From positions 1 to 60,129 of the IMG/VR virus record IMGVR_UViG_3300011113_000688: 60,129 bases of DNA, one strand, 5' to 3'. The translations under genes and the position numbers were made by a program. The notes below the pieces were generated by a model. That model was not told where the DNA came from and ran no database searches. It saw only the letters and a program-made list of their open reading frames with translations. Below are positions 16-36,901 of the stretch, piece after piece; position 1 is the first letter of the stretch; every line of letters starts with the position of its first letter. Source of the DNA: a virus. Its lineage: Duplodnaviria; Caudoviricetes.

Positions 16-192
16 ATGATCAAAGCACAATTTACTGCTGCCGACGTAGCAGAAGCAACAAAGGGCCTGGGTGCTACTGTACTCAAACCACGTAAAGCAA
101 AGCAGCCAGTATGCCGTGCTAAGTCCAGCAAGGGCTTTGTAAAGGGCACCGGTGGGTTTGCTACTGGGTATCCACGAAAGGTCTTTGTGTGA
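16..192 (+). CDS. Small basic hypothetical protein (58 aa, MIKAQFTAADV...), missing from the ORF track
   Basis: ATG16 open to TGA192; GTGA overlap with the next ORF. Confidence 0.55.
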   Translation: MIKAQFTAADVAEATKGLGATVLKPRKAKQPVCRAKSSKGFVKGTGGFATGYPRKVFV

Positions 193-5643: not shown

Positions 5644-5811
5644 ATGGATCAGATTGATAAAATGATTGCTTATGAAGCAGGTGAGTTGCACTTTGATGAA
5701 ACAATTGAATTTTTTCAAGAATTGATTGATTCTGGACTTGTGTGGCAATTGCAGGGTTCCTATGGACGAACTGCACGTGCCTTGATTGATGAAGGTTGGT
5801 GTATACAGTGA
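5644..5811 (+). CDS. Conserved hypothetical protein (FQELIDSGLVWQLQGSYGRTA)
   Basis: GGAGG SD; common phage motif. Confidence 0.7.
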   Translation: MDQIDKMIAYEAGELHFDETIEFFQELIDSGLVWQLQGSYGRTARALIDEGWCIQ

Positions 5812-6209
5812 TGAGTGAAGCAAGAATCGTAGCGAATCGTATTCGTACACCTGACGGTACGATTCTTGAATCTAGGCATCGCCACGACTATGTGACCTAT
5901 GTTGATGCAAATGGCAAAGAATACATGGTCGATGGTGGACTGGAGTATCTGCGTCGAAATGTACATGATGATGCACCGTATGAGGAACTGTCGGTGTATG
6001 ATGATGCACCATATGCTCTAATTCGGGAAGTATTCAAGTGGGGCACACGTGGTAAAGGTGGTCGTCAGCCTTTGACTTTTGTACCACTCAAAGACTTGAC
6101 AACAGAACACATTGAGGCTATACTTGAAACTCAAATTCACATTAGTGAACGCATACGAAAACTTTTTATTAGTGAATTGACTTTTAGAGGCGTTCAGAGG
6201 GATATATAG
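5811..6209 (+). CDS. Conserved hypothetical protein (SRHRHDY...VDGG...WGTRG)
   Basis: TGATG coupling; common phage motif. Confidence 0.7.
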   Translation: MSEARIVANRIRTPDGTILESRHRHDYVTYVDANGKEYMVDGGLEYLRRNVHDDAPYEELSVYDDAPYALIREVFKWGTRGKGGRQPLTFVPLKDLTTEHIEAILETQIHISERIRKLFISELTFRGVQRDI

Positions 6210-6213
6210 AGTT

Positions 6214-6309
6214 ATGAACAAACTAATACACATTACGAAGGAATGCCCACAGTATCGCACATTTAGCGACAATGGATCATGGGCGCCCGCATCGGAGGTT
6301 TGTGTATAG
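6214..6309 (+). CDS. Putative attenuator leader peptide MNKLIHITKECPQYRTFSDNGSWAPASEVCV (31 distinct codons, all 20 amino acids)
   Basis: Manual translation; 3' end overlaps the antiterminator strand. Confidence 0.7.
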   Translation: MNKLIHITKECPQYRTFSDNGSWAPASEVCV

Positions 6310-6344
6310 ATTGTAGTTTAGTTCGAACTGTATACAAACCCCGA
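6292..6344 (+). promoter_or_regulatory. Antiterminator helix, mutually exclusive with the terminator at 6336-6369
   Basis: TCGG-A-GGTTTGTGTATAG (6292-6309) pairs with CTGTATACAAACCCCGA (6328-6344): 17 bp, 2 G-U pairs, 1 bulge. Confidence 0.7.
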
Positions 6345-6369
6345 AATCTAAAAGGCTTCGGGGTTTTTT
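6336..6369 (+). terminator. Intrinsic terminator immediately upstream of tRNA-Pro
   Basis: AAACCCCGAA...TTCGGGGTTT followed by TTT. Confidence 0.85.
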
Positions 6370-6377
6370 GTTTTTAG

Positions 6378-6454
6378 CTGAGTGTAGTTCAGCCTGGTAG
6401 AATGCCTGCTTTGGGAGCAGGAGGTCGGGAGTTCGATCCTCTCCACTCAGACCA
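6378..6454 (+). tRNA. tRNA-Pro(TGG)
   Basis: Cloverleaf, cctgc-ttTGGga-gcagg, encoded CCA. Confidence 0.93.
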
Positions 6455-6462
6455 AAAAGTAG

Positions 6463-6491
6463 TTGACAAAGTTTTGATGTTTCTGTAGAAT
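6463..6491 (+). promoter_or_regulatory. sigma70-type promoter TTGACA-N17-TAGAAT inside the tRNA array
   Basis: Consensus -35; TG just upstream of the -10. Confidence 0.75.
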
Positions 6492-6528
6492 GTTGTTTGT
6501 TGATTGATCTTTAAAAAATTTGTGAGAT

Positions 6529-6603
6529 GCACCCATCGTCTAGTGGTCAGGACATTGCCCTTTCACGGCAGTAACACCGGTTCGAATCCGGTTGGGTGTA
6601 CCA
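6529..6603 (+). tRNA. tRNA-Glu(TTC)
   Basis: Cloverleaf, CCA. Confidence 0.93.
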
Positions 6604-6613
6604 ATTATATTAT

Positions 6614-6690
6614 GGGTGTGTAACTCAGTTGGCTAGAGTATCAGACTTTTAATCTGAGAGTCGTGGGTTCGAATCCCACCGCACCTACCA
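6614..6690 (+). tRNA. tRNA-Lys(TTT)
   Basis: Cloverleaf, CCA. Confidence 0.93.
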
Positions 6691-6766
6691 TATTGAAGCA
6701 CATTGGTTCTGAGGGTTGTTCCGAGGATAATTCACTCCAATGGAGTCCCAGTGTGTTTCAATATGG
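6688..6766 (+). repeat. CCA-initiated long hairpin, copy 1
   Basis: CCATATTGAAGCACATTGG / CCAGTGTGTTTCAATATGG, 19 bp. Confidence 0.85.
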
Positions 6767-6844
6767 TTGCAAACAGCGTGATATGTACCCAACATTTGCA
6801 GTAGGGGAGGATCGGGATTCGTTGGTCTGTGTAAACAGCAGACA

Positions 6845-6903
6845 CCATATTGAAGCACATTACTAAGAGTCCGAGGTGTATGGCATAGTGTGCTTCAATG
6901 TGG
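6845..6903 (+). repeat. CCA-initiated long hairpin, copy 2
   Basis: CCATATTGAAGCACATTA / TAGTGTGCTTCAATGTGG, 18 bp. Confidence 0.85.
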
Positions 6904-6979
6904 CACTTTAGCATAGCTGGCCTAATGCGCTGCCCTGTCACGGCAGAGATCACGGGTTCGAATCCCGTAAGTGTCGCCA
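6902..6979 (+). tRNA. tRNA-Asp(GTC)
   Basis: Cloverleaf, CCA. Confidence 0.93.
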
Positions 6980-6986
6980 GAATTAT

Positions 6987-7062
6987 TGCTCAGTAGATCA
7001 GTCGGTAGATCAGCGGACTGTTAATCCGTGTGTCGTTGGTTCGAGCCCAACCTGAGCAGCCA
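6987..7062 (+). tRNA. tRNA-Asn(GTT)
   Basis: Cloverleaf, CCA. Confidence 0.93.
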
Positions 7063-7070
7063 GTAAATGT

Positions 7071-7144
7071 TGGGGATTAGTTAAATGGTATAACCACGGA
7101 TTTTGATTCCGTTGTCGTAAGTTCGATTCTTACATCCCCTGCCA
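7071..7144 (+). tRNA. tRNA-Gln(TTG)
   Basis: Cloverleaf, CCA. Confidence 0.92.
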
Positions 7145-7150
7145 GTGAAT

Positions 7151-7235
7151 GGGTGCCGAGAAGCATTGGTGACTTCAGCAGACTGTAAATCTGTCGCCTC
7201 AGGCATACGGGGTTCGAATCCCTGGGTACCCACCA
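7151..7235 (+). tRNA. tRNA-Tyr(GTA)
   Basis: Cloverleaf with V-arm, CCA. Confidence 0.9.
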
Positions 7236-7236
7236 A

Positions 7237-7312
7237 CGGTCTTTAGTAAAATGGATGATTACGGCGGGCTACGGACCCGCAGGTGGGAGTTCGATTCTCT
7301 CAGGACCGGCCA
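7237..7312 (+). tRNA. tRNA-Arg(ACG)
   Basis: gcggg-ctACGga-cccgc, CCA. Confidence 0.9.
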
Positions 7313-7404
7313 TATTGAAACATATTGCGAAGACCGCTGAGTCGTTCTGCATTGCTGGAGTCTTCTATGAAGAGGTGTCGCAAAGGCAGTATGTTTCAAT
7401 ATGG
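7310..7404 (+). repeat. CCA-initiated long hairpin, copy 3
   Basis: CCATATTGAAACATATTGC / GCAGTATGTTTCAATATGG, 19 bp, with compensatory changes. Confidence 0.85.
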
Positions 7405-7434
7405 AAAATAAAACAATCGCAAAAACTTGCGATT

Positions 7435-7463
7435 TATAAATACTCCAAAATATAGGAGTATTT
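7435..7463 (+). promoter_or_regulatory. T4-type late promoter TATAAATA overlapping an SD-sequestering hairpin
   Basis: TATAAATA 7435-7442; AAATACTCC / GGAGTATTT stem. Confidence 0.8.
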
Positions 7464-7464
7464 T

Positions 7465-7992
7465 ATGTGGAATTGTAAACACTGTAAAAAAGAGTTTGAT
7501 TTTAAATCTACCAGTGAAAAAGCAAATCACAGTAGATGGTGTGGATATAATCCGGATAAAAAAACTGAAAATGTTTTATCCGCTTTGAAAAAAAGACATG
7601 ATGAACAGTATGGTAAATTAACAAAAATTTCAGTATCTTGTGACTGTTGTGAAAAAGATTTTTTTGTGGAAGAAAGAGAATACCTATTTCCAAGTAAAAA
7701 AAAATATTTTTGTTCTAGAAAATGTGCTAATAGTGTAGGTGGTAAAGCCAAAAGAGACAAATACGGATTAACCGCATATACAAGTATTGCTAAAGAATAC
7801 TACGAAGAAAAATGTATTGTGTGTGGTTTTGATGAAATAGTTGAAGTTCATCACATAGATGAAAACAGAAGTAATAATGATGTAAAAAATTTGGTGTTTT
7901 TGTGTCCGAATCATCATTATTTGTTACATAGAAAAAAGTCAGAAAAAGTTAGTAATAGAATTACAGAGTTTTTAAAAGAAACATGGGGATAG
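7465..7992 (+). CDS. HNH homing endonuclease with Zn-finger motifs, inserted in the tRNA array
   Basis: CKHC, FCSRKC, CIVCG...VHHIDENRSNN...NLVFLCPNHH; AT-rich; stop codon lies in the tRNA-Ala acceptor stem. Confidence 0.85.
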   Translation: MWNCKHCKKEFDFKSTSEKANHSRWCGYNPDKKTENVLSALKKRHDEQYGKLTKISVSCDCCEKDFFVEEREYLFPSKKKYFCSRKCANSVGGKAKRDKYGLTAYTSIAKEYYEEKCIVCGFDEIVEVHHIDENRSNNDVKNLVFLCPNHHYLLHRKKSEKVSNRITEFLKETWG

Positions 7993-8063
7993 GGACTGCT
8001 TGGGGTGGTCACTTCACTTGCAATGAAGAATACAGTTCGGTTCGAATCCGAATATCTCCACCA
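7985..8063 (+). tRNA. tRNA-Ala(TGC)
   Basis: G3:U70, cttca-ctTGCaa-tgaag, CCA. Confidence 0.88.
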
Positions 8064-8074
8064 AAGTATTTAAT

Positions 8075-8159
8075 GCTGGAGTCCCATAGCGGCAATTGGA
8101 CTTGCCTTGTAAGCAAGCGGGTAAAACCTCCGTGAGTTCGAGTCTCACCTCCAGCACCA
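8075..8159 (+). tRNA. tRNA-Thr(TGT) with an unusual long variable arm
   Basis: cttgc-ctTGTaa-gcaag; V-arm ggt-aaa-acc; CCA. Confidence 0.85.
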
Positions 8160-8165
8160 GACTAT

Positions 8166-8241
8166 CGCAGAGTATGGAAGTGGTCATCCGCTCGGTCTCA
8201 TAAGCCGAGAATCGCAGGTTCGAATCCTGCCTCTGCAACCA
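8166..8241 (+). tRNA. tRNA-fMet(CAT)
   Basis: C1:A72 mismatch, CAT anticodon, CCA. Confidence 0.85.
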
Positions 8242-8255
8242 TTTATAGGTGAAAC

Positions 8256-8723
8256 GTGAAAAAAGAAATTGATGTAAACGAAGTTGCCGCATTTCTTGAT
8301 ACATGTGGTCCAGATACAAAAGTGTATGTTGGCGCCGATTCTGAACGATTTCAGATTGGGGGTGAATGGTATGCTGACTACATTTTGGCTGTTGTCGTTC
8401 ATATCGATGGTCGTCATGGTTGTAAGATATTTGGTGCTGTACAGCGTGAACGTGATTTCGAACAAAAGAAAAGTCGACCACGTTTTCGTTTGATGAATGA
8501 AGTTTATAAAGTAGCAGATTTGTATTTGAAATTGTATGAAGTAATACCGCATGATATACAGATTCATTTGGATATCAACCCAAGTGAGATGCATGGTAGT
8601 TCGTGTGTGGTAAATGAAGCGATTGGTTATGTACGTGGTACATGTAATGTGATACCATTGATAAAACCAAAAGCGTTTGCTGCAAGTTATGCGGCAGATC
8701 GTTTCAAAAGTTTAGTAGCGTAG
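8256..8723 (+). CDS. RNase H-like YkuK (DUF458) family protein
   Basis: VYVGADS...RLMNEV...IHLDIN...ASYAAD motifs. Confidence 0.8.
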   Translation: MKKEIDVNEVAAFLDTCGPDTKVYVGADSERFQIGGEWYADYILAVVVHIDGRHGCKIFGAVQRERDFEQKKSRPRFRLMNEVYKVADLYLKLYEVIPHDIQIHLDINPSEMHGSSCVVNEAIGYVRGTCNVIPLIKPKAFAASYAADRFKSLVA

Positions 8724-8797
8724 CGGGTATAATTCAGGGGTAGAATGTTTCCTTGCCAAGGAAAATGTCGTCAGTTCGAATCTGACTACCCGCTCCA
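8723..8797 (+). tRNA. tRNA-Gly(GCC)
   Basis: Cloverleaf, TCCA end. Confidence 0.92.
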
Positions 8798-8805
8798 AGT
8801 TTTAT

Positions 8806-8879
8806 CTCGATGTAGTGTAATGGTAGCACTGCGATCTCCAAAATCGTAAGTTGCGGTTCGAGTCCGTACATCGGGGCCA
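8806..8879 (+). tRNA. tRNA-Trp(CCA)
   Basis: gcgat-ctCCAaa-atcgt, CCA. Confidence 0.88.
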
Positions 8880-8881
8880 AT

Positions 8882-8976
8882 GGTAGACAGCACTGGTGTG
8901 CGGCGGAGACTTATAAACTCTGGAGAGTGGTCAGATGGGCTGCAACGGCTAGGTTCGAATCCTAGGTCTACTACCA
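8882..8976 (+). tRNA. tRNA-Ile(TAT), non-canonical (reduced D-arm, long V-arm)
   Basis: GGTAGAC/GTCTACT acceptor stem, ctTATaa loop, T-arm ctagg-TTCGAAT-cctag, CCA. Confidence 0.75.
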
Positions 8977-8983
8977 GAACAAT

Positions 8984-9058
8984 GGTGTCTATAGTGTAGT
9001 GGTAGCATTACTCTCTGTGAAAGAGTAGGTACGGGGTCGGTACCCGTTAGACACCCCA
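8984..9058 (+). tRNA. tRNA-His(GTG)
   Basis: G-1:C73, actct-ctGTGaa-agagt; atypical T-loop GTCGGTA. Confidence 0.85.
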
Positions 9059-9065
9059 GCAGTAA

Positions 9066-9141
9066 GGTGCTTTAGCAAATGTGGTCATTGCAGCGGTCTG
9101 AAGAACCGATGAAGTTGGTTCGATTCCAACAGGCACCACCA
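9066..9141 (+). tRNA. tRNA-Phe(GAA)
   Basis: Cloverleaf, CCA. Confidence 0.88.
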
Positions 9142-9142
9142 T

Positions 9143-9216
9143 TGTCCTGTAGTTCAATGGTAGAACCTACGACTGATAATCGTATAACACAAGTTCGATT
9201 CTTGTCAGGACAACCA
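9143..9216 (+). tRNA. tRNA-Ile(GAT)
   Basis: Cloverleaf, CCA. Confidence 0.92.
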
Positions 9217-9220
9217 GAAT

Positions 9221-9295
9221 GGTAGTGTAGCATAATGGTAGTGCGCCACCTTCATACGGTGTCAGGTGTAAGTTCGAATCTTACCACTACTACCA
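9221..9295 (+). tRNA. tRNA-Met(CAT), elongator (Ile2 not excluded)
   Basis: Cloverleaf, CAT anticodon, CCA. Confidence 0.85.
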
Positions 9296-9321
9296 ATATA
9301 AGTAAGCGTGTGAGGCGATGT

Positions 9322-9396
9322 GCATCGTTAGTTCAGTGGTAGAATCCCTGCCTTACAAGCAGGTTGTCGGTGGTTCGAATCCATCACGATGCACCA
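9322..9396 (+). tRNA. tRNA-Val(TAC)
   Basis: Cloverleaf, CCA. Confidence 0.93.
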
Positions 9397-9401
9397 ATAA
9401 T

Positions 9402-9479
9402 GCAACGGTGGCAGAGTGGTCCAATGCAAGGGACTGCAAATCCCTAAAGCCGTCAGTTCGAATCTGACCCGTTGCTCCA
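9402..9479 (+). tRNA. tRNA-Cys(GCA)
   Basis: Cloverleaf, U73, CCA. Confidence 0.92.
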
Positions 9480-9484
9480 GTTTT

Positions 9485-9574
<90 letters not shown>

Positions 9575-9577
9575 AAT

Positions 9578-9649
9578 GTCTCGGTCAGTACGGTGGGACG
9601 TACAGATGGACAACACTAGGACAAGGTTCGAATCCAAACTGAGACACCA
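9578..9649 (+). ncRNA. tRNA-like RNA without a canonical anticodon arm
   Basis: GTCTCGG/CTGAGAC-A-CCA acceptor stem, GGTTCGAATCC T-loop, internal GTACG/CGTAC hairpin. Confidence 0.65.
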
Positions 9650-9663
9650 AAATAAAAGAAAAT

Positions 9664-9789
9664 ATGGTAACATTAAAAATTATTCTAACAATTATTTGTT
9701 ACTGGGTGCTTATGGGTGTTAGTGTCGCACTCATCATGGTACTTTTTTATGGTTTAGCGGTAATTTTAGGAGAGTTGGCAGAGTGGTAA
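9664..9789 (+). CDS. Possible small membrane peptide (41 aa) overlapping tRNA-Ser(GCT)
   Basis: MVTLKIILTIICYWVLMGVSVALIMVLFYGLAVILGELAEW; weak SD. Confidence 0.35.
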   Translation: MVTLKIILTIICYWVLMGVSVALIMVLFYGLAVILGELAEW

Positions 9790-9855
9790 TGCACCGGATT
9801 GCTAATCCGCCGTTTCGAAAGAGGCGCACAGGTTCGAATCCTGTACTCTCCGCCA
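9769..9855 (+). tRNA. tRNA-Ser(GCT)
   Basis: Class II cloverleaf, G73, CCA. Confidence 0.92.
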
Positions 9856-9856
9856 C

Positions 9857-9885
9857 TTGACAAACAATTTTTTCTGATTTATACT
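9857..9885 (+). promoter_or_regulatory. sigma70-type promoter TTGACA-N17-TATACT (probably a leaderless transcript)
   Basis: ATG9893 lies 7 nt after the -10 box. Confidence 0.8.
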
Positions 9886-9892
9886 ACATTCT

Positions 9893-10051
9893 ATGAATAA
9901 AAAATCACAAAAATTGCGAAAACCACGTAATTTTGTTGCTAAAGACTTGTTCACGCCGAAGTTTCGCATGAAAGTTGAGCATTCGGCGACAAAAATACAT
10001 AACCGAGCAGTTGAAAAACAAAACTTTAGGAAAAATTATGCCTTCCTCTGA
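9893..10051 (+). CDS. Small basic ArfA-like peptide (52 aa), missing from the ORF track
   Basis: RNFVAKDLFTPKFRMKVE resembles the ArfA core NAIEALLHDPLFRQRVE. Confidence 0.5.
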   Translation: MNKKSQKLRKPRNFVAKDLFTPKFRMKVEHSATKIHNRAVEKQNFRKNYAFL

Positions 10052-10472
10052 TGAAAAGTTGCAAAAAGTTGAGCCGGAAGCAATTTCTGGCGATGAAATG
10101 AGTAGATTCGACGGCTTTTATTTTGTTCCCGACTATGATGACTTTGAAGGAAACTACAAATTAGCGTTTTTCAACTTTAAAGAAGAGTGGACACTTGCAG
10201 AACCCATTGAAAAATCACAATTAGGCTACAAATATCACATGGCATTCTTCAAAGAAGATGAAAATGGCATGCCACAGTTTGATGATGCGTTTGAAGCGAT
10301 ACTAGGCGACCCAATTGTGTACATAAAAAATCTTGTTGGCTCTGGTTTGTCAGGTTGTATCGTCAAAAAAACAGAAACATCTGAAAGTTGGTGGGTTGAG
10401 TATCTTGATTTTGTTACAGGCAACGAGTTTAAGCAAAAAGTGAACGATGCACTTAAATCTTTAGCGGAGTAA
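10038..10472 (+). CDS. Acidic hypothetical protein
   Basis: ORF track; likely start ATG10038 with AGGA SD. Confidence 0.65.
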   Translation: MPSSDEKLQKVEPEAISGDEMSRFDGFYFVPDYDDFEGNYKLAFFNFKEEWTLAEPIEKSQLGYKYHMAFFKEDENGMPQFDDAFEAILGDPIVYIKNLVGSGLSGCIVKKTETSESWWVEYLDFVTGNEFKQKVNDALKSLAE

Positions 10473-10475
10473 ATT

Positions 10476-10772
10476 ATGAATACTAAAAATGTTTTTTCTG
10501 GTGACAGTGAAGATGCTGAAATTGGTCGTAAATGGCTGATTGAATTGCTTGAGAATCAATCCGTTGAAATTATTTTCACGAAAAAAGACGGAACTGAGCG
10601 TACAATGAAATGCACACTGATGGAAAAATATCTACCAGAGACAGTTGGCTCAGGAAAAGCAAAAAATGACGAAGTTCTTGCCGTTTATGATTTAGAAAAA
10701 GAAGGTTGGCGTAGTTTTCGTTGGGATTCAATCAAAGAAGTACATTTTTCGTTGGAGAGTGAGAATGCCTAA
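10476..10772 (+). CDS. WYL_2/DUF2693-like SH3-fold protein
   Basis: FTKKDGTERTMKCTL...VYDLEKEGWRSFR. Confidence 0.75.
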   Translation: MNTKNVFSGDSEDAEIGRKWLIELLENQSVEIIFTKKDGTERTMKCTLMEKYLPETVGSGKAKNDEVLAVYDLEKEGWRSFRWDSIKEVHFSLESENA

Positions 10773-11055
10773 GTATATCGTTGAGCAATTGTCTATTTTT
10801 CGTAATGTTTATGTGATCGAAGCGGAATCTGAAGAAGAAGCTGTGAAGATTTCTGAATATGCTGATGATAATTGGCAAGAATGGCTTGGTTGCGTTAAAG
10901 TTGACATAAATGAATATAGTGATGAACGCATTGCTTACTTCAAAAACAAGCAATATTACTGGAATGGTGTAACATATAAAGATAAAGATGGATATCTTGC
11001 ATATCATCACCCATCTGGTGAAGATGTTGAACGAAAAGAGATTCTCATCAAATAG
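10759..11055 (+). CDS. Hypothetical protein
   Basis: ORF track. Confidence 0.65.
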   Translation: MRMPKYIVEQLSIFRNVYVIEAESEEEAVKISEYADDNWQEWLGCVKVDINEYSDERIAYFKNKQYYWNGVTYKDKDGYLAYHHPSGEDVERKEILIK

Positions 11056-11060
11056 TTTTA

Positions 11061-11134
11061 GCGGGATTAGTTTAATGGCAAAACTTGAGATTTCCAATCT
11101 TACGTTGTCAGTTCGATTCTGACATCCCGCTCCA
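11061..11134 (+). tRNA. tRNA-Gly(TCC)
   Basis: Cloverleaf, TCCA end. Confidence 0.9.
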
Positions 11135-36466: not shown

Positions 36467-36901
36467 TTATCTTATACCAAGGTGCTTTTCAGTTAAAATT
36501 AGAAATTGCCAACCATGATCTTTACAAAACTCTTCGGCCGCATACCATTTGGCCTTATTGACCTCATAGGTGATTGCTTCTTGTAAATAAGTCTTGGTCT
36601 TACGTTTTTGTGTTGGTGGTTGAGTTTGCTTTTCTGGTTTAACTTCTATGATGTATGTCATTATTGTACCGTCTGCTTTACGCATTTTGGCGATGAAGTC
36701 TGGAAAGTAACGATGCTTCTTTTTGTCAATTGGATTGTAATAAGGTATAGGAAGTTCTTCCGACCCCCACCAGAGAACGTTCGGATTGTCATCTAAATAA
36801 TTCATTACCTTTATTTCCCACGTAGACCTATAGATGATATTGTTTGCATCACCTTTGTATTTCTGTGGGTTTTTCGGTCTAAATCTTCCTTTGTTTGGCA
36901 T
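36467..36901 (-). CDS. gp4: Head completion nuclease gp4
   Basis: PKNPQKY.GD..NIIYRS.WE, WGSEE, HRYFPDF, EVKP, N.AKW. Confidence 0.93.
   Translation of the reverse strand: MPNKGRFRPKNPQKYKGDANNIIYRSTWEIKVMNYLDDNPNVLWWGSEELPIPYYNPIDKKKHRYFPDFIAKMRKADGTIMTYIIEVKPEKQTQPPTQKRKTKTYLQEAITYEVNKAKWYAAEEFCKDHGWQFLILTEKHLGIR

Follow-up and report, generated by a model that had tools for sequence, protein, structure and literature searches.

What decides when a phage transcribes its own tRNA genes? To our knowledge, the control of tRNA array expression in phages is hardly known. The available parts of two papers discuss such arrays as codon supplements and as a counter to host defences that cut tRNAs (PMC10264068, PMC11555353). 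The question is raised by a locus in a window of 60,129 bp, by which we mean the whole stretch of DNA that was analysed; it is an entire IMG/VR virus record with an estimated completeness of 36%. The window carries T4-type baseplate genes, and the source phage is an uncultured freshwater T4-like myovirus. Comparison of the gp6-like wedge protein places it closest, among cultured phages, to Methylophilales phage Melnitz and Pelagibacter phage HTVC008M (approximately 42% identity). A short open reading frame (ORF) stands at the 5′ edge of the tRNA array of this phage (Table 1), and an earlier note on this DNA had proposed that the two are parts of a translation-coupled attenuator, in which a ribosome on the ORF gates transcription of the tRNA genes.

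Table 1 Features of the leader region and the tRNA array, in window coordinates.
Feature	Position	Strand	Description
Upstream gene (DUF7695)	5811..6206		
Sigma70-type promoter (candidate)	6096..6124	+	TTGACA-17-TATACT, in the 3′ part of the upstream gene; 11/12 consensus matches
AT box	6201..6208	+	GATATATA; ends exactly 5 nt before the ATG
Leader mini-ORF	6214..6309	+	31 codons plus TAG (6307–6309), ATG at 6214; peptide MNKLIHITKECPQYRTFSDNGSWAPASEVCV
Segment 1 (anti-antiterminator arm)	6218..6232	+	Codons 2–7, ORF nt 5–19; pairs with 6301–6314
Hairpin P0	6253..6271	+	UAUCGC-ACAUUUA-GCGA(U/C)A, 6 bp, within codons 14–20
Segment 2	6292..6314	+	Last five codons, stop and 5 nt beyond; 6292–6309 is the 5′ arm of the antiterminator
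Segment 3	6328..6344	+	3′ arm of antiterminator P1; overlaps the terminator 5′ arm (CCCCGA)
Intrinsic terminator	6339..6375	+	CCCCGAA (6339–6345) / UUCGGGG (6357–6363), U6-G-U5 to 6375
tRNA-Pro(UGG)	6378..6454	+	First array gene; starts 2 nt after the U-run
Sigma70-type promoter (candidate)	6463..6491	+	TTGACA-17-TAGAAT; would drive tRNA-Glu onward independently of the attenuator
Long-stem hairpin RNAs (three)	6688..6766; 6845..6903; 7311..7402	+	Between tRNA genes
HNH endonuclease ORF	7465..7992	+	Inside the tRNA array
RNase H-like ORF (PF04308)	8256..8723	+	Inside the tRNA array
tRNA-like cloverleaf	8881..8976	+	Between tRNA-Trp and tRNA-His

A conserved mini-ORF at the edge of a tRNA array

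We gathered related loci through relatives of the upstream gene in viral contigs (79 loci), a 17-mer, peptide alignment and metagenome contigs, which gave a set of 43 loci including the window, with 31 unique ORF sequences and 29 unique peptides. One 17-mer match, in L091/L097, was an unrelated coding match and not a leader. Scanning viral contigs with a degenerate SDNGSW pattern returned 20 matches, 11 in known contigs and 9 inside unrelated larger ORFs, and no new relatives. Among GenBank phages, megablast found no match to the region, blastn matches were confined to the tRNA genes with no further DNA-level sharing, and tblastn with the leader peptide gave two matches only, both at chance level (E 2–5).

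The mini-ORF was intact in 42 of the 43 loci, and the 43rd is truncated by a contig end. Its unique DNA variants are 31, 30 or 29 codons long, the length changes being −3 and −6 nt only and both in frame; the ATG is invariant and the stop is always kept, as TAG or, in two variants, TAA. Pooled pN/pS was 0.46 in frame versus 2.60 and 0.72 in the other frames, which are closed by stops in 24/26 and 26/26 sequences, and changes fell on the third codon position 28 times and on the others 19 and 18 times. Peptide identity among variants is 60–100%, a shallow divergence of up to 40%, and a core YRT(F/I/V)SDN(G/N)SW is conserved across relatives. The peptide had no Pfam or PHROG match, and an exact-sequence look-up of four variants found none of them in a collection of 15 billion proteins. 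Upstream of the ORF, no Shine-Dalgarno sequence is conserved among relatives. The pattern of change indicates that the leader ORF is a genuine mini-gene that had escaped annotation.

The link to the tRNA array that the earlier note had claimed was borne out by the relatives. The array lies directly 3′ of the leader ORF in 39/39 loci with enough DNA, and in no locus of the set does a tRNA lie upstream of the ORF. Among the 79 loci with the upstream gene, the mini-ORF is present in 8, exactly those 8 with an array directly behind, and it is also present in three loci with no detected homologue of the upstream gene. By this distribution, the mini-ORF follows the tRNA array, not the upstream gene. 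In the window, ARAGORN found 22 tRNA genes from 6378 to 11134, covering every amino acid except Leu. The first tRNA, tRNA-Pro, begins 0–4 nt after the terminator U-run in 29 of the 39 loci; the other 10 have a TTGACA-type promoter-like site in between.

Codon and amino-acid diversity of the leader

All 31 sense codons of the window's leader differ and all 20 amino acids occur, 19 of them by codon 24, as the earlier note had counted. That note had estimated by hand a probability of approximately 1e-4 for 31 distinct codons under uniform usage, and lower under the AT-biased usage of this DNA; computation agreed, giving 8.6e-5 for uniform codons and exactly 1.8e-6 for the codon usage of the window's genes. 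Frame-free trinucleotide usage gave 1.6e-5 and the ORF's own base composition 6.5e-5, and the probability of finding all 20 amino acids in 31 residues was 1.8e-4 to 4.6e-4. Sliding 31-codon windows over the long ORFs of the window never had all-distinct codons (0/14195), and one of the same 14195 had all 20 amino acids. Among the six-frame ATG-ORFs of 31–60 codons (n = 167), the leader alone reached 31 distinct codons, the runner-up having 27.

The same note had named ordinary codon repetition in homologous loci as a ground for refuting its reading, and the relatives show just that: only 2 of the 31 unique variants (the window and its near-twin) are repeat-free, the others have 1–8 repeats, and the lack of repeats is thus not conserved. 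What does hold across the family is high diversity as such. The variants contain 17–20 amino-acid types versus 15.0 ± 1.4 in random 31-mers, all 20 amino acids are present in 19 of the 31, including one of 29 residues, and the number of distinct codons is 25–31 in 29 of them and 22 and 24 in the other two, with 22.4 ± 2.0 expected. The leader of the window, with its perfect codon diversity, is an extreme case in a family whose diversity is high throughout. The variants are related by descent, so this diversity is effectively one observation, noticed post hoc, with p of approximately 2e-4 to 5e-4.

Could the ORF and its codon diversity be chance features of an intergenic spacer? The diversity was noticed post hoc in a scan of very many windows, and its repeat-free form is restricted to the window and the near-twin, as a chance origin would allow. 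That origin is contradicted by an ORF and structures that are conserved in 42 of 43 loci across the full range of peptide divergence, and we consider it very improbable.

If the diversity is functional, the leader might be built to hold almost all amino acids once each; the ribosome on it would then slow, and the gate open, whenever nearly any tRNA ran short or was cleaved. It would then be a general tRNA-pool sensor, and the gate would possibly open onto the phage's own near-complete tRNA set. We regard this idea as tentative and rather doubtful. The single Gln shifts among positions 10, 12 and 13 and is lost in no variant. Leu is missing from 10 of the 31 unique variants, Phe, Gly and Lys are each missing in two, and Pro and Ala are occasionally lost. 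Conserved positions hold 6 of 10 singleton residues versus 7 of 21 repeated residues, a difference that is not significant (p = 0.25). Val is confined to the last leader codons, where a stall cannot be sensed. Amino-acid losses from the leader do not track the tRNA content of the arrays. A rule by which the leader would lose the residues whose tRNAs are absent from the array fails in L007, whose flank lacks Gly(gcc) and Phe tRNAs but has Leu(tag), and whose leader lacks Gly and Leu and keeps Phe. The leader of the window has a Leu CTA codon although its array has no Leu tRNA. An attenuator specific for proline was ruled out, as Pro codons number 0–2 per variant and stand at shifting positions. 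No run or enrichment of codons for one sensed amino acid was found, and the leader of the window repeats no codon at all.

Four RNA segments with alternative pairings

The earlier note had claimed that the end of the ORF pairs with the spacer behind it, and folding agreed: 6292–6309 and 6328–6344 form 17 pairs with one bulged A (−23.8 kcal/mol). This helix, P1, folds in 32/32 unique sequences at −14.3 to −24.1 kcal/mol and always consumes the CCCCGA of the terminator, so that the claimed overlap between antiterminator and terminator 5′ arm is present and conserved in relatives. The 5′ arm of P1 contains the stop codon in every complete locus (42 loci, 31 unique ORF variants). The P1 pair at −2 goes from U-A via U-G to C-G (UA 26, UG 4, CG 2), and the pair at −3 is GU in 21 sequences and GC in 11.

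The terminator itself was paired in 100% of cells in 32 sequences. Two of its pairs show double changes, in eight cells: 134/150 (GC 27, CG 3, AU 2) and 135/149 (AU 29, GC 3). Its stem is extendable by A-U pairs, from 6336 to 6366. A simple terminator scan did not list it because its loop of 11 nt exceeds the limit of 8 nt in that scan.

We found that the helix set described earlier was incomplete, since a first segment near the start of the ORF, which pairs with the 5′ arm of the antiterminator, had been missed. In alignment A3, columns 5–19 paired with columns 88–101 in 86% of cells, versus 30–51% in a slid-partner control, a figure for the whole tested structure, and the helix was also predicted in full-length folds. 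Double changes occurred at 15/92 (AU 28, GC 2, GU 2) and at 10/96 (CG 21, UA 2, UG 2). In L140/L141, a change of A to G in codon 5 matches a U to C change in the penultimate codon, turning A-U into G-C; this U to C in segment 2 also has a counterpart in segment 3, an A to G change. In L123/L124, a synonymous change of Leu CTA to TTA matches the change of the stop from TAG to TAA, turning C-G into U-A. The G-U intermediates for both compensations occur in relatives. Segments 1:2, 2:3 and 3:4 (the last being the terminator) make up a full four-segment attenuator with compensatory changes in all three helices. Because divergence is shallow, each compensation rests on one lineage of two sequences.

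Two further helices were considered. A GCCCA/UGGGC helix around P0, which belongs to the window's own minimum-energy fold, was rejected because it is not kept in other clades. A CAUGGGC/GUUUGUG helix from RNAalifold is invariant, includes four G-U pairs and competes with the supported helices.

These helices also bear on another explanation, namely that the mini-ORF encodes an ordinary small phage protein and has a terminator of its own, that the helices do no more than shape or stabilize an mRNA of approximately 160 nt, and that tRNA-Pro is transcribed by constitutive leak through the terminator. Such a gene would fit with the conserved peptide core and with the separate candidate promoter of the rest of the array, and terminated and RNase P-processed transcripts would presumably give the same small RNA. 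Against it, one segment-2 base is compensated in both of its alternative, mutually exclusive partners, a pattern that a switch predicts and a static fold does not need. Moreover, the element always travels with the tRNA array rather than with the upstream gene, and the peptide is without a match in Pfam, PHROG or the protein collection. We consider an ordinary gene unlikely.

Predicted behaviour of the switch

With four segments, the behaviour expected of an attenuator can be laid out. Transcripts would enter from the promoter in the upstream gene, from the AT box just before the ATG, or from both, and would carry the leader ORF together with the four pairing segments. In naked RNA, segments 1 and 2 would pair, leaving segment 3 free for segment 4, and transcription would stop at the U-run, which ends 2 nt short of tRNA-Pro. 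The terminator would also form once the ribosome had reached the end of the ORF, where it would cover segment 2. If a ribosome were still translating the first codons, or if ribosomes were queued behind a stalled one, segment 1 would be masked, so that segments 2 and 3 could form the antiterminator; no terminator would then form, and RNA polymerase would transcribe tRNA-Pro and the array beyond it. In this way, a leader ribosome that falls behind the polymerase would increase transcription of the tRNA genes.

Ensemble folding was consistent with this scheme. In the naked full-length RNA, in which the 1:2 helix forms, the probability of the terminator core was 0.38–0.98. When pairing was restricted to the RNA from the last 18 nt of the ORF onward, which models a ribosome located upstream, it fell to 0.00–0.18 in 25 of 32 sequences. 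For a ribosome placed on the stop codon it was 0.96–0.98, in line with the earlier claim that a ribosome reaching the stop favours termination. A scan of ribosome positions in the window and in L111 gave values below 0.1 for P-site codons 1–6 and of 0.92 or more from codon 25 on (0.98 in the window), with mixed values between codons 6 and 25 that a queued second ribosome lowers. The proposal that a stall at any earlier codon gives read-through is therefore too simple; in a one-ribosome model, the cleanest suppression of the terminator is predicted with the ribosome on codons 1–6. Since segment 1 pairs with segment 2, untranslated RNA is predicted to terminate rather than to read through. In L137 and L110, of the TATAAATA-box clade, and in L132, a trimmed P1 and the terminator coexist at equilibrium with a local terminator probability of 0.82–0.90, so that a switch there would have to be kinetic.

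Our best reading, to which we give a probability of roughly 0.6, is a transcription attenuator of the ribosome-mediated, leader-peptide type that controls entry into tRNA-Pro and the array. The data show a conserved ORF, three helices with compensatory changes and a fixed place ahead of the tRNAs; the translation of the ORF, the promoter used, a working terminator and the cause of ribosome slowing we infer. Of the attenuator first proposed for this locus, the ORF, the overlap of antiterminator and terminator and the association with the array proved to be conserved, and the helices carry compensatory changes; its freedom from codon repeats did not hold among relatives, and read-through from a stall at any earlier codon was too simple.

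The public RNA runs are kept as contigs only, in which starts, ends and strand are not visible. A 209-nt contig from an RNA library (X18, record 18) spans 6266–6455, running through the terminator and into tRNA-Pro; carry-over of DNA may explain it.

An invariant hairpin inside the ORF

The middle of the leader is constrained more strongly than its peptide requires. Codons 8, 21 and 25 each use 3–4 synonyms among the 26 variants of 31 codons, whereas codons 14–20 show one synonymous variant in the same set (GAC, in the window); the 30-codon variant L130 adds another, CGT at codon 15. Hairpin P0, which lies within these codons, was paired in 99.5% of cells, shows no covariation and is nearly invariant at synonymous sites. 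The lack of synonymous variation in codons 14–20 and the invariance of P0 argue for an RNA-level constraint added to coding, and the frozen sites point to a role at the RNA or DNA level that the attenuator model does not need. P0 may be a pause hairpin or a protein-binding hairpin. The pause-site reading would draw on P0 together with a GG..CG consensus.

A binding role for P0 raises the possibility of a real switch set in trans, by a protein or RNA acting on P0 or segment 1 and not by the ribosome, the open frame being tolerated or incidental. PyrR and TRAP are models for attenuation of this kind. P0 and codons 14–24 are almost invariant at the nucleotide level, synonymous sites included, the substitutions of more distant variants fall on every codon position within the variable blocks, and a conserved Shine-Dalgarno sequence is lacking, all of which would suit a trans-acting factor. 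An incidental frame would scarcely explain an invariant ATG and stop, indels that are always in frame, the lower pN/pS of the coding frame and the closure of the other two. The start also sits exactly at segment 1 and the stop inside segment 2, as control by a ribosome needs. An Rfam scan of 6214–6377 (4227 families, including leader and T-box families) returned nothing at E up to 1, and so no family match for a switch of this type. We judge control by a trans factor to be improbable.

Promoters and reach of the attenuator

Of 31 unique relatives with enough upstream DNA, 24 have a TTGACN-16..18-TANNNT sequence 115–118 nt ahead of the ATG, and the corresponding candidate promoter within the upstream gene of the window is the likely source of transcripts entering the leader.

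A second candidate is the AT box. The sequence NATA(A/T)ATA occupies −13 to −6 in 41 of 43 loci (12 of 14 unique 13-mers), with a spacer of fixed length and variable sequence. In the available parts of two papers, the late-promoter box of the T4 family, TATAAATA / NATAAATA, is located at −13 to −6 (PMC2988020, PMC2984593), and the 8-bp AT box likewise stands at −13 to −6 from the first ORF base. The box of the window, GATATATA, matches the T4 late-promoter consensus TATAAATA at 6 of 8 positions, and the match is perfect in L087, L095, L098, L137 and L139–L141. Exact TATAAATA was not enriched in the window (3 found, 3.7 expected), and NATAAATA (ATAAATA) lies 4–38 nt before 10 ORFs there. We consider the AT box a candidate late promoter or, alternatively, a candidate AU-rich enhancer of translation starts. 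With the spacing of a T4 late promoter, the transcript would start at the A of the AUG. The resulting mRNA would be leaderless, and we know of no leaderless mRNA from T4 late genes. As a separate observation, NATAAATA boxes stand only 4–6 nt before the ATG of genes in the baseplate region at 36470 (−), 41177 (+) and 46168 (+), and very short or absent 5′ leaders may be common in the late genes of this phage group.

At the other end of the element, tRNA-Pro starts so close behind the U-run that there is no room for a promoter of its own. The array beyond it is a different case. The earlier note had cautioned that a second sigma70 promoter at 6463 could act downstream, and we found that a sigma70-like site is indeed present there. 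A TTGACA-17-TA(G/T)AAT sequence follows tRNA-Pro (or, in one clade, precedes it) in 29/29 unique relatives with enough downstream DNA. As every one of these arrays has its own candidate promoter, in most phages tRNA-Pro alone would strictly depend on read-through, and with tRNA-Glu onward served separately in 29/29, the regulatory reach of the element may be small. In one relative, L105/L006 (IMGVR_UViG_3300044825_001821), tRNA-Pro is no longer first in the array but has been shifted to tenth, and a promoter-bearing spacer of 187 nt lies 3′ of the attenuator.

Relation to known attenuators

The textbook leader-peptide attenuators are those of the enterobacterial amino-acid operons trp, his, leu, thr, pheA and ilv. 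The phage element shares with them a short leader ORF, the 1:2, 2:3 and 3:4 pairings and an intrinsic terminator just before the regulated gene, and a ribosome that has come to the ORF's end favours the terminator in the operons and is predicted to do so in the phage. In contrast to them, the phage leader has no tandem codons for one amino acid, which are their hallmark, and no Shine-Dalgarno sequence; its segment 1 occupies the extreme 5′ end of the ORF, with the stop inside segment 2; and the regulated genes are phage tRNAs rather than biosynthetic enzymes. The two have no sequence relation, and none of the leader families of Rfam matched. Modelling of amino-acid operon attenuators is treated in the available part of one paper (PMC1183508). 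As modelled here, the phage element works on the trp/his principle, its segment 1 being shifted to the beginning of the ORF.

Two other kinds of regulator are close in function. The T-box riboswitches also tie the choice between antiterminator and terminator to the status of tRNA; they recognize uncharged tRNA by direct binding, lack a leader ORF and regulate synthetase or amino-acid genes. Nearer to the phage element are bmrCD of Bacillus subtilis (PMC4191407) and mef/mel (PMC4335068), which the available parts of these papers describe as ribosome-mediated attenuators that sense a general slow-down of translation. According to the same parts, their leader ORFs resemble that of the phage in having no amino-acid-specific codon runs, and slowed translation of the leader leads to read-through; unlike the phage element, whose output is tRNA genes, they answer antibiotics and control transporters, and nothing in the phage leader indicates a drug-dependent arrest peptide.

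In full-text searches of mainly open-access literature, we found neither an attenuator before tRNA genes, phage or bacterial, nor a leader peptide containing all amino acids. The element is thus a known mechanism in a new place, with an unusual leader. If it works as modelled, it would link the transcription of tRNA genes directly to decoding by the ribosome, a feedback of which we know no other example for tRNA genes. At approximately 165 nt it is a compact unit in which one could test if the state of the entire tRNA pool can be sensed by a leader that has no codon runs.

Other features inside the tRNA array

Several further features lie within the array of the window. Besides the HNH endonuclease and RNase H-like ORFs, a tRNA-like cloverleaf has an acceptor stem of 8 bp, a variable arm that is long, and an anticodon loop of 9 nt, ACUUAUAAA. 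It was missed by ARAGORN at default settings, whereas relaxed ARAGORN called it 'Tyr(ata)' with a 2-nt intron, and its tRNA-Sec-like match in Rfam scored 27.9 bits, below the cut-off. A canonical tRNA-Leu is absent from the window, and Leu(tag) is carried by the relatives L005 and L007. Three long-stem hairpin RNAs between tRNA genes are closed by one shared inverted repeat, CCAUAUUGAA(G/A)CA...UG(C/U)UUCAAUAUGG, a motif that occurs 7 times versus 1.5 expected. Their fold z-scores are −6.1, −3.5 and −3.6, and they may be processing sites, small RNAs or mobile mini-elements.
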